From positions 1 to 40,471 of IMG/VR virus record IMGVR_UViG_2547132281_000014: DNA of 40,471 bases. The stretch is one strand, 5' to 3'. Positions 39,026 to 39,952 of the stretch are shown here, piece by piece. The DNA is from a virus. Taxonomy: Duplodnaviria > Heunggongvirae > Uroviricota > Caudoviricetes. Position 1 is the first letter of the stretch, and every line of letters begins with the position of its first letter. The translations under genes were made by a program, and so were the position numbers. A model generated the notes under the pieces. The model worked only from the letters and a program-made list of their open reading frames with translations. It searched no databases and had not been told where the DNA came from.

Positions 39026-39799
39026 TCAAAAATTAGGTGAGTAACGGACCGGGGACATAGCTCCTTTTTTTCTTAATTCATCTGGTATTTTTTTTCCAAG
39101 ATAAAGATTTGCTATTTCAGGTGGGGCTTCTCGACCTTCAAAACCATAGCGAGAACTTTGTGTTGCCTCAAAGTCCGGATCCTCGTCCCAGTATTTCATC
39201 GTAGGGAAATTTTCACGTGTTGATTTGAGCCATTTATCAGCAATGAAAACCCCTCGAACGATCCCCCTTACAGTAGCAAGAATGACTTCTGCTTGGCTGG
39301 CGCGAGAGACATTAATGCGCCAGCTAAATCGAACCGCATCATAAAGCTCTGAATCCTTTGCACTTCTGTTAACGGAAATCATTAATGCTTTATGATGAAA
39401 TGTTATGGTTTCGGGTTGATATGTTGCTATCAACTCTTTGACATGCGCGGCGCCGAATTCATTGCTGCCAGCACCATTCATGATATTCGTTAACCCAGGG
39501 TAGGCATCAATAAGTGCTGCTTCGACTTCGTACGCCGTCTTTTCATCAGTCATTCCGTGTCGATGGATGACATGGATAACCTCAAGTCCTGCTAACCTTA
39601 TTTCTCTAATTTGCTTTAGCTTGTTGCTCAGTAACTCGTCATCATCAGTCGCTGCCACTTCACCGCGCATATGGGCAAATACGCGGTTACCTTTGCCTTT
39701 CCCTACATAGAAGGTGCTTCCGTCCCTCGGATCAATCAATCGGTATACATACCAGCCAAGGTGTTCAATTACTCCAGAAGGAAACTCAGTAATATCCAT
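39026..39799 (-). CDS. GIY-YIG nuclease-domain protein with an uncharacterised C-terminal domain (257 aa)
   Basis: Start at the ATG at 39799. N-terminal [28 protein letters not shown] (GIY...YVG), a downstream Arg, Glu ([10 protein letters not shown]) and Asn (LTNIMNG), in GIY-YIG order. AT-rich. Last phage-side gene before IS1. Confidence 0.72.
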
Positions 39800-39952
39800 T
39801 TTGCAATATCTGTGAATTATTTGTGAGACGTATATTAATGAACATTGCAAGGGCTCACAACTAGTAGTGTTGAGAAAGCCATCGGGAAAATGAGGCTAAC
39901 CCTTTGAATTTACATAGCGCAAAAAGATACCTTTCCTCATAATGTGAGCTAA

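Follow-up and report, generated by a model that had tools for sequence, protein, structure and literature searches.

An intact CMoRE (PD-T4-3) gene, as judged from sequence, in the cargo slot behind pin of an SfI/SfII/SfV-related prophage, next to a rare IS1 junction

The window, a 40,471-nucleotide stretch of DNA analysed at its full length, begins in chromosomal DNA and contains an SfI/SfII/SfV-related prophage integrated at thrW. At the left prophage end (1369-2622, no strand assigned to the feature as a whole), ARAGORN placed the tRNA-Thr(CGT) gene thrW at 1369-1444, and the minus-strand frame at 1459-2622 in the ORF list is taken to be the putative integrase on the basis of its position and its length, which equals that of the int gene adjoining attP in SfI (1164 nt). 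The structural genes (~20000-36500) are ~97% identical to those of the Shigella phages SfI, SfII, SfIV and SfV. To their right lies a Pin-invertible tail-fibre segment (36488-38349, no strand assigned), with a 20-nt inverted repeat at either end (36488-36507 and 38330-38349; 95% complementary). Strain 3036 also has the IS1 junction described below; in it, the tail-fibre assembly gene tfaE and its partner stand in reversed order and on opposite strands, and the switch therefore appears active or recently active. The plus-strand gene for the site-specific DNA invertase Pin (pinE-like; 38411-38965) was assigned from RefSeq pinE in identical DNA and from blastn against e14. The gene under study, CMoRE (39026-39799, minus strand), is flanked by pin on one side and by an IS1 element on the other, the latter separated from it by a spacer of 153 bp. 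A repeat of the thrW attachment site (attR) was sought near CMoRE and was not found within the window; in the IS1-free strain TW10722 the thrW attR lies ~2.3 kb past CMoRE, with an AraC-family gene and an integrase fragment in between.

The longest minus-strand frame at the CMoRE locus in the ORF list spans 39026-39850, with a TTG start and 274 amino acids. The true start is the ATG at 39799 rather than the TTG at 39850, giving a protein of 257 amino acids (plus stop) that begins MDITEFPSG, because RefSeq uses this ATG in identical DNA (774-nt CDS, WP_000355484.1, identical in sequence to the window protein, in strains 99.8-100% identical in CMoRE DNA) and because Y17, Y19 and Y31 then fit the residue numbering of the CMoRE paper (PMC12923530). 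A sequence-only reading of this DNA had assigned the gene to 39026-39952; the coordinates and distances were accurate, except that 39952 is the end of the spacer and the gene ends at 39799. Its description of an AT-rich, oppositely oriented gene holds, as the GC content is 43.9% in the gene and 36.6% in the 153-bp spacer against 51.0% in the prophage, and CMoRE runs opposite to pin, the two genes being convergent. Both the ORF list and the comparison with the crystallised protein 9U75 show a coding sequence free of inactivating mutation.

Profile and sequence searches identify the product along its whole length. The PADLOC model for PD-T4-3 (PDLC04031) covered residues 1-256 with positions 1-255 of its 256 (E-value 2.4e-140), a check that the sequence-only reading had proposed. 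A phmmer search against PDB aligned residues 1-257 with 9U75/9U8D, the O157:H7 CMoRE protein (E-value 3.7e-172), and the PDB sequence search aligned all 257 residues with 9U7U/9U7Z, the APEC O1 protein (E-value 1.1e-150). The GIY-YIG assignment made earlier by eye is supported by Pfam PF22945 (LEM-3_GIY-YIG; residues 28-110, E-value 2.1e-14, 54.2 bits with the cut-off at 27), while the generic GIY-YIG model PF01541 stayed below threshold (13.9 bits against 22.6). No Pfam or NCBIfam model matched the C-terminal half, which had rightly been called unassigned with respect to these two libraries, and NCBIfam gave no match anywhere in the protein. In PHROGs the protein falls at full length in phrog_5356, listed as “unknown function”. 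No McrA or HNH match was returned by Pfam, NCBIfam or PADLOC. Against an I-TevI-type homing endonuclease, a candidate that we regard as effectively refuted, stand among other things the lack of a Pfam DNA-binding module in the C-terminal part and the prophage cargo context.

From these matches and the residue check described below, the protein divides into an N-terminal GIYxY-YIG nuclease domain (approximately residues 1-110; 39470-39799, minus strand; PF22945 and residue check, with residue roles from PMC12923530) and a predicted C-terminal modification-sensing domain (approximately residues 120-257; 39029-39442, minus strand; assigned by near-identity to 9U75) that holds Y127, both boundaries being approximate. 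No additional domain was found with Pfam and there is no partner gene, in keeping with the single-component, type I architecture of 257 amino acids.

The PD-T4-3 system was first obtained by Vassallo et al. 2022 in a functional selection; the main text of that paper says only in general terms that a GIY-YIG nuclease is part of one of the new systems, and neither PD-T4-3 nor ECOR68 was found in it. The sequence-only reading had supposed a relation to the single-gene GIY-YIG systems that functional screens in E. coli have yielded, and the system in question proves to be this one. Liu et al. (Nat Commun 2026; PMC12923530) subsequently renamed PD-T4-3 as CMoRE and described it as a modification-dependent endonuclease of type IV. 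In that work CMoRE lowered the plating efficiency of T2, T4 and T6 by ~5 orders of magnitude, T4(hmC) was sensitive and T4(C) escaped, and the enzyme bound and cleaved 5hmC and 5ghmC DNA in vitro, not C or 5mC DNA (PMC12923530). Cleavage follows the pattern CN11/N9G with 2-nt 3′ overhangs and needs two modified sites; cuts occur throughout the T4 genome with no strict sequence requirement, modified cytosines being essential (PMC12923530). The protein forms a tetramer that depends on V92/L96, a third tyrosine extends the nuclease signature to a “GIYxY-YIG” motif, and the active site is covered by an acidic loop of 15 residues, four of which are acidic and consecutive (PMC12923530). [quoted passage not shown] The activity of the native promoter varies among CMoRE alleles, that of APEC O1 being weak (PMC12923530). 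Deletion of PD-T4-3 from the clinical isolate NILS69 raised the plating of two phages, and K-12 carrying PD-T4-3 with its native upstream sequence on a low-copy plasmid was protected against four Tevenvirinae phages.

Each of the tested residues named in the text of PMC12923530 (Y17, Y19, Y31, V92, L96 and Y127) is kept in the window protein, as is R80. The three tyrosines of the GIYxY-YIG motif lie in the segment WYVYRL...FYVGKG, the extra tyrosine Y19 standing between the conventional Y17 and Y31. The acidic run is D52-D53-D54-E55, within a loop that here reads T51-DDDE55; APEC O1 has the same DDDE as the window protein, and O157:H7 has DDDD. Because these residues and the acidic run are kept, the gene was filed as a type I member of CMoRE/PD-T4-3.

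The closest characterised relative is the O157:H7 protein (WP_000355475.1; 9U75 and 9U8D), which shares the length of 257 amino acids and the two-domain architecture and is identical at 253 of 257 positions (98.4%). The differences are T51A, E55D, Q169K and N197H, of which T51 and E55 fall within the autoinhibitory loop and only Q169K and N197H within the C-terminal part (residues 111-257); a further difference is the IS1 element that stands 153 bp upstream of the window copy and is missing from most carriers by far. The substitutions relative to 9U75 spare the functional residues named in PMC12923530, except for the conservative D55E in the acidic run, and E55 is shared with the active APEC O1 protein. 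The APEC O1 protein (9U7U and 9U7Z), also of 257 amino acids and with the same two domains, differs at 38 positions (85.2% identity). The motif, the acidic lid, V92/L96 and Y127 are common to the O157:H7, APEC O1 and window proteins. More distantly, a Capnocytophaga homologue, PD-T4-3Capno, belongs to the same family of modification-dependent nucleases; according to PMC12366544, it degrades T4 DNA and spares unmodified T4-GT7 DNA, and differs in its identity of ~48% to the E. coli prototype and in also degrading Mu DNA, which carries carbamoylmethyl-adenine.

Judged on sequence, the gene in the window is an intact CMoRE (PD-T4-3), a system that is already known and not new, and restriction activity would be expected of this allele given its near-identity to the 9U75 protein. 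The mechanism is known from experiments on the O157:H7 protein, which is 98.4% identical, and we infer the same course for the window allele. The protein would assemble as a homotetramer, a dimer of dimers, whose C-terminal domain would bind the 5-hydroxymethylcytosine or glucosyl-hmC of incoming T-even phage DNA. Two modified cytosines ~21 bp apart (CN11/N9G) would be required, between which the GIYxY-YIG domain would cut with Mg2+ or Mn2+ to leave 2-nt 3′ overhangs. The negatively charged loop T51-DDDE55 over the active site would keep the enzyme from cutting host DNA that is unmodified or carries 5mC. The infected cell would be directly protected from T2/T4/T6-type phages with no abortive infection, and IS1 would be a rare secondary event; both the CMoRE reading frame and the 153 bp nearest to it are intact. 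We consider this explanation as a whole, a CMoRE copy acting in direct defence against T-even phages with IS1 as a rare later event, to be very probably correct. Two ideas of the sequence-only reading, a single-polypeptide, type-IV-like defence nuclease and a C-terminal reader of modified bases, agree with the published biochemistry and crystal structures of the family, in which CMoRE is a type IV enzyme and the C-terminal domain binds 5hmC (PMC12923530).

The position of the gene within the prophage was compared with that of known cargo genes. K-12 e14 has the order ymfQ, stfP, tfaP, tfaE, stfE, pinE, mcrA and then the prophage end, and blastn of the window against the e14 locus matched 38330-38966 at 89.5%, the homology ending at 38966, one base beyond the pin stop codon (38965). 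The parallel with e14 drawn from the sequence, with CMoRE in the slot of mcrA, was thereby borne out. McrA (EcoKMcrA) resembles CMoRE in occupying the slot directly after pin at the right prophage end and in being a prophage-encoded, single-polypeptide type IV modification-dependent restriction enzyme, but the two proteins are unrelated. The McrA nuclease is of the HNH type, not GIY-YIG. Furthermore, mcrA is co-directional with pin, whereas CMoRE is convergent with it. McrA is annotated as methyl-directed, in contrast to CMoRE, which ignores 5mC and needs 5hmC or 5ghmC (PMC12923530). With mcrA in e14 and CMoRE in this prophage, the post-pin position is thus filled by type IV restriction enzymes that are unrelated to each other.

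In SfI, whose structural genes show the ~97% identity given above, the corresponding slot, with the tail-fibre genes on one side and attP on the other, contains gtrA-gtrB-gtrI, a cassette that, like CMoRE, is transcribed against the tail genes, but that serves O-antigen conversion (receptor modification); SfI also differs in having neither pin nor an invertible segment at the cargo position. Where SfI has its gtrABC serotype-conversion genes, this prophage has the invertible fibre segment together with pin and CMoRE. Behind the tail-fibre/pin module, e14-like and SfI/SfV-like prophages hold interchangeable cargo (mcrA, gtrABC, CMoRE). In strain C7 an acyltransferase gene (1497-2588 of the extracted C7 locus) adjoins CMoRE in the same region.

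The distribution of the gene was assessed by using a 988-bp segment (gene and spacer) as query against complete E. coli genomes. CMoRE was present in 852 of 5426 genomes, nearly always as a single chromosomal copy; by record, 62 matched at an identity of at least 99% and 781 at 95-99%. Seven of the 893 matching places were plasmid-borne. On plasmid pMTY18781-4 (NZ_AP023209.1, 68.5 kb), pinE lies beside CMoRE (682-1455 of the extracted locus) together with a yagP-like LysR pseudogene fragment; this record may represent a phage-plasmid, or else a chromosomal segment that was excised or misassembled. In IS1-free alleles CMoRE is flanked by non-coding DNA or by unrelated genes that differ with the context.

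The 153-bp spacer upstream of CMoRE (39800-39952, minus strand), delimited by alignment of IS1-free and IS1-bearing alleles, is AT-rich and presumably holds the native promoter. It is identical in the IS1-free strain TW10722 and has two base differences in ECONIH4. Beyond it, an IS1 element (IS1A-like; 39953-40471, minus strand) is cut by the end of the window; it was recognised from the sequence, the ORF list and the RefSeq annotation at the same junction, which reads “IS1-like element IS1A family transposase”. Its right terminal repeat (IRR, 39953-39979; GGTAATGACTCCAACTTATTGATAGTG, or with its continuation GGTAATGACTCC...) begins at 39953, and the insB frame (39968-40471) reads toward CMoRE and runs off the window. 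With the ATG at 39799, the distance of 153 bp between IS1 and the start codon noted in the sequence-only reading is correct. A full match to the junction (240-bp probe) was found in only 6 genomes (3036, 11PC, D1, MLI104K1, GF66.2 and PSS-07).

In D1 and 3036, the two of these six that were examined, the IS1 copy is one arm of a 3.24-kb IS1-corA-IS1 composite (6120-9361 in the extracted 3036 locus and 6988-10229 in the extracted D1 locus), with the order IS1 (IRR outermost), corA, ysgD, a truncated gene and an inverted second IS1, both IRRs facing outward. No target-site duplication was found at the outer IS1 ends, and the composite replaces ~190 bp relative to IS1-free alleles; this was therefore not a simple insertion. 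The replaced stretch includes, in TW10722, a sequence that looks like the 3′ part of a serU-like tRNA-Ser(CGA) gene (...CGGTCTCGAAAACCGGAGTAGGGGCAACTCTACCGGGGGTTCAAATCCCCCTCTCTCCGCCA). This sequence, which lies ~25 bp past the IS1 insertion point (~6990-7075 of the extracted TW10722 locus), is absent from the window, and ARAGORN called no tRNA in it in the IS1-free allele. CMoRE copies in other contexts diverge inside the part that resembles an anticodon arm, and the tRNA-like sequence could be an old att core, although the present prophage sits at thrW.

The sequence-only reading had placed the end of IS1 in the likely promoter region, where it may affect expression. Given this junction, CMoRE might be silent or misregulated here if the IS1-corA-IS1 composite took away its control region or shifted it. 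At a distance of 153 bp from the gene, IS1 has taken the place of ~190 bp of native upstream DNA, the junction is rare (6 of 852 CMoRE carriers), and in another strain the expression of PD-T4-3 depends on conditions, being raised at pH 5.25. In addition, the retained spacer has no consensus promoter: a scan of 38900-40100 for sigma-70 consensus promoters and terminators gave nothing on the CMoRE strand, and the promoter position can therefore only be suggested, a weak TTGTGA-17-TAATAT candidate with 8 of 12 matches being seen by eye at ~39832-39860. However, the spacer adjoining the ATG does not differ over its 153 bp from that of the IS1-free allele in TW10722, and the coding sequence carries no inactivating mutation. 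Moreover, when the IS1-free contexts were compared (TW10722/C7 against ECONIH4/pMTY18781-4), the shared sequence extended only ~40 bp past the IS1 insertion point, so that the promoter of the mobile module is probably within the retained part. The module with its promoter would thus probably lie largely inside the retained 153-bp side, and we regard a silenced or misregulated gene as unlikely.

Two further readings concern what the protein does rather than whether it is made. The sequence-only reading had offered abortive infection as one form of defence, in which the nuclease kills the infected host once triggered. A homologue with its acidic loop neutralised (mutant 4A) cuts ordinary DNA and is toxic, and self-damage is therefore possible in principle (PMC12923530). 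Nevertheless, infection at MOI > 1 left the growth of cells with the system of O157:H7 or ECOR68 normal, from which the defence was judged direct and non-abortive, and the read depth of host DNA stayed steady during infection in CMoRE cells (PMC12923530). The published high-MOI growth data rule against the abortive form, and we hold it to be highly improbable for the window gene; direct restriction of modified phage DNA is the reading we retain.

Among the cultured phages of INPHARED there was no close copy of CMoRE. The best matches there were full-length homologues of 38-45% identity in jumbo phages (~250-285 kb) of Serratia, Pectobacterium, Pantoea, Pseudomonas and Klebsiella, for example in Serratia phage Moabite (NC_048792.1, 6406-7161) and Pseudomonas phage OBP (158703-159449); their annotations read homing endonuclease, GIY-YIG endonuclease or hypothetical protein. 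These homologues could be modification-dependent nucleases used in phage-phage competition. That the window gene is a selfish, free-standing GIY-YIG homing endonuclease with a sequence-specific DNA-binding module at its C-terminus is scarcely credible: “putative homing nuclease” and “G-I-Y Y-I-G endonuclease” labels on these jumbo-phage homologues and a weak match over the nuclease region to PHROG 314 “homing endonuclease” (E-value 0.0021) point that way, but the best full-length matches are PD-T4-3 and an unannotated PHROG, the near-identical protein cuts T4 DNA genome-wide at modified cytosines only, 5hm-dCTP is a ligand of its C-terminal domain, for which no homologue is known (PMC12923530), and the gene sits as cargo between pin and the prophage end with no intron, intein or target-gene context seen. 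The sequence-only reading had itself raised a homing-endonuclease module near a target or intron as one objection to a defence role; Pfam gave no C-terminal DNA-binding module, and no such context was seen.

As a discovery, the gene is of small value, since CMoRE dates from 2022, was confirmed in 2025 in a native host, and had its structure and mechanism described in 2026. Its use is in annotation: the current labels go no further than RefSeq “LEM-3-like GIY-YIG domain-containing protein” and PHROG “unknown function”, with no NCBIfam model, and the gene can therefore be relabelled CMoRE/PD-T4-3. It is a long shot that the rare IS1-corA-IS1 composite rewires CMoRE expression or that the T51/E55 lid variant shifts autoinhibition or substrate range. 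If it does hold, rewiring would mean relieved silencing of the AT-rich upstream region or the loss of a distal control element, and a lid shift would move the range, for example toward further hypermodified bases, as reported for PD-T4-3Capno; in both cases the defence phenotype would be peculiar to the allele or the strain.
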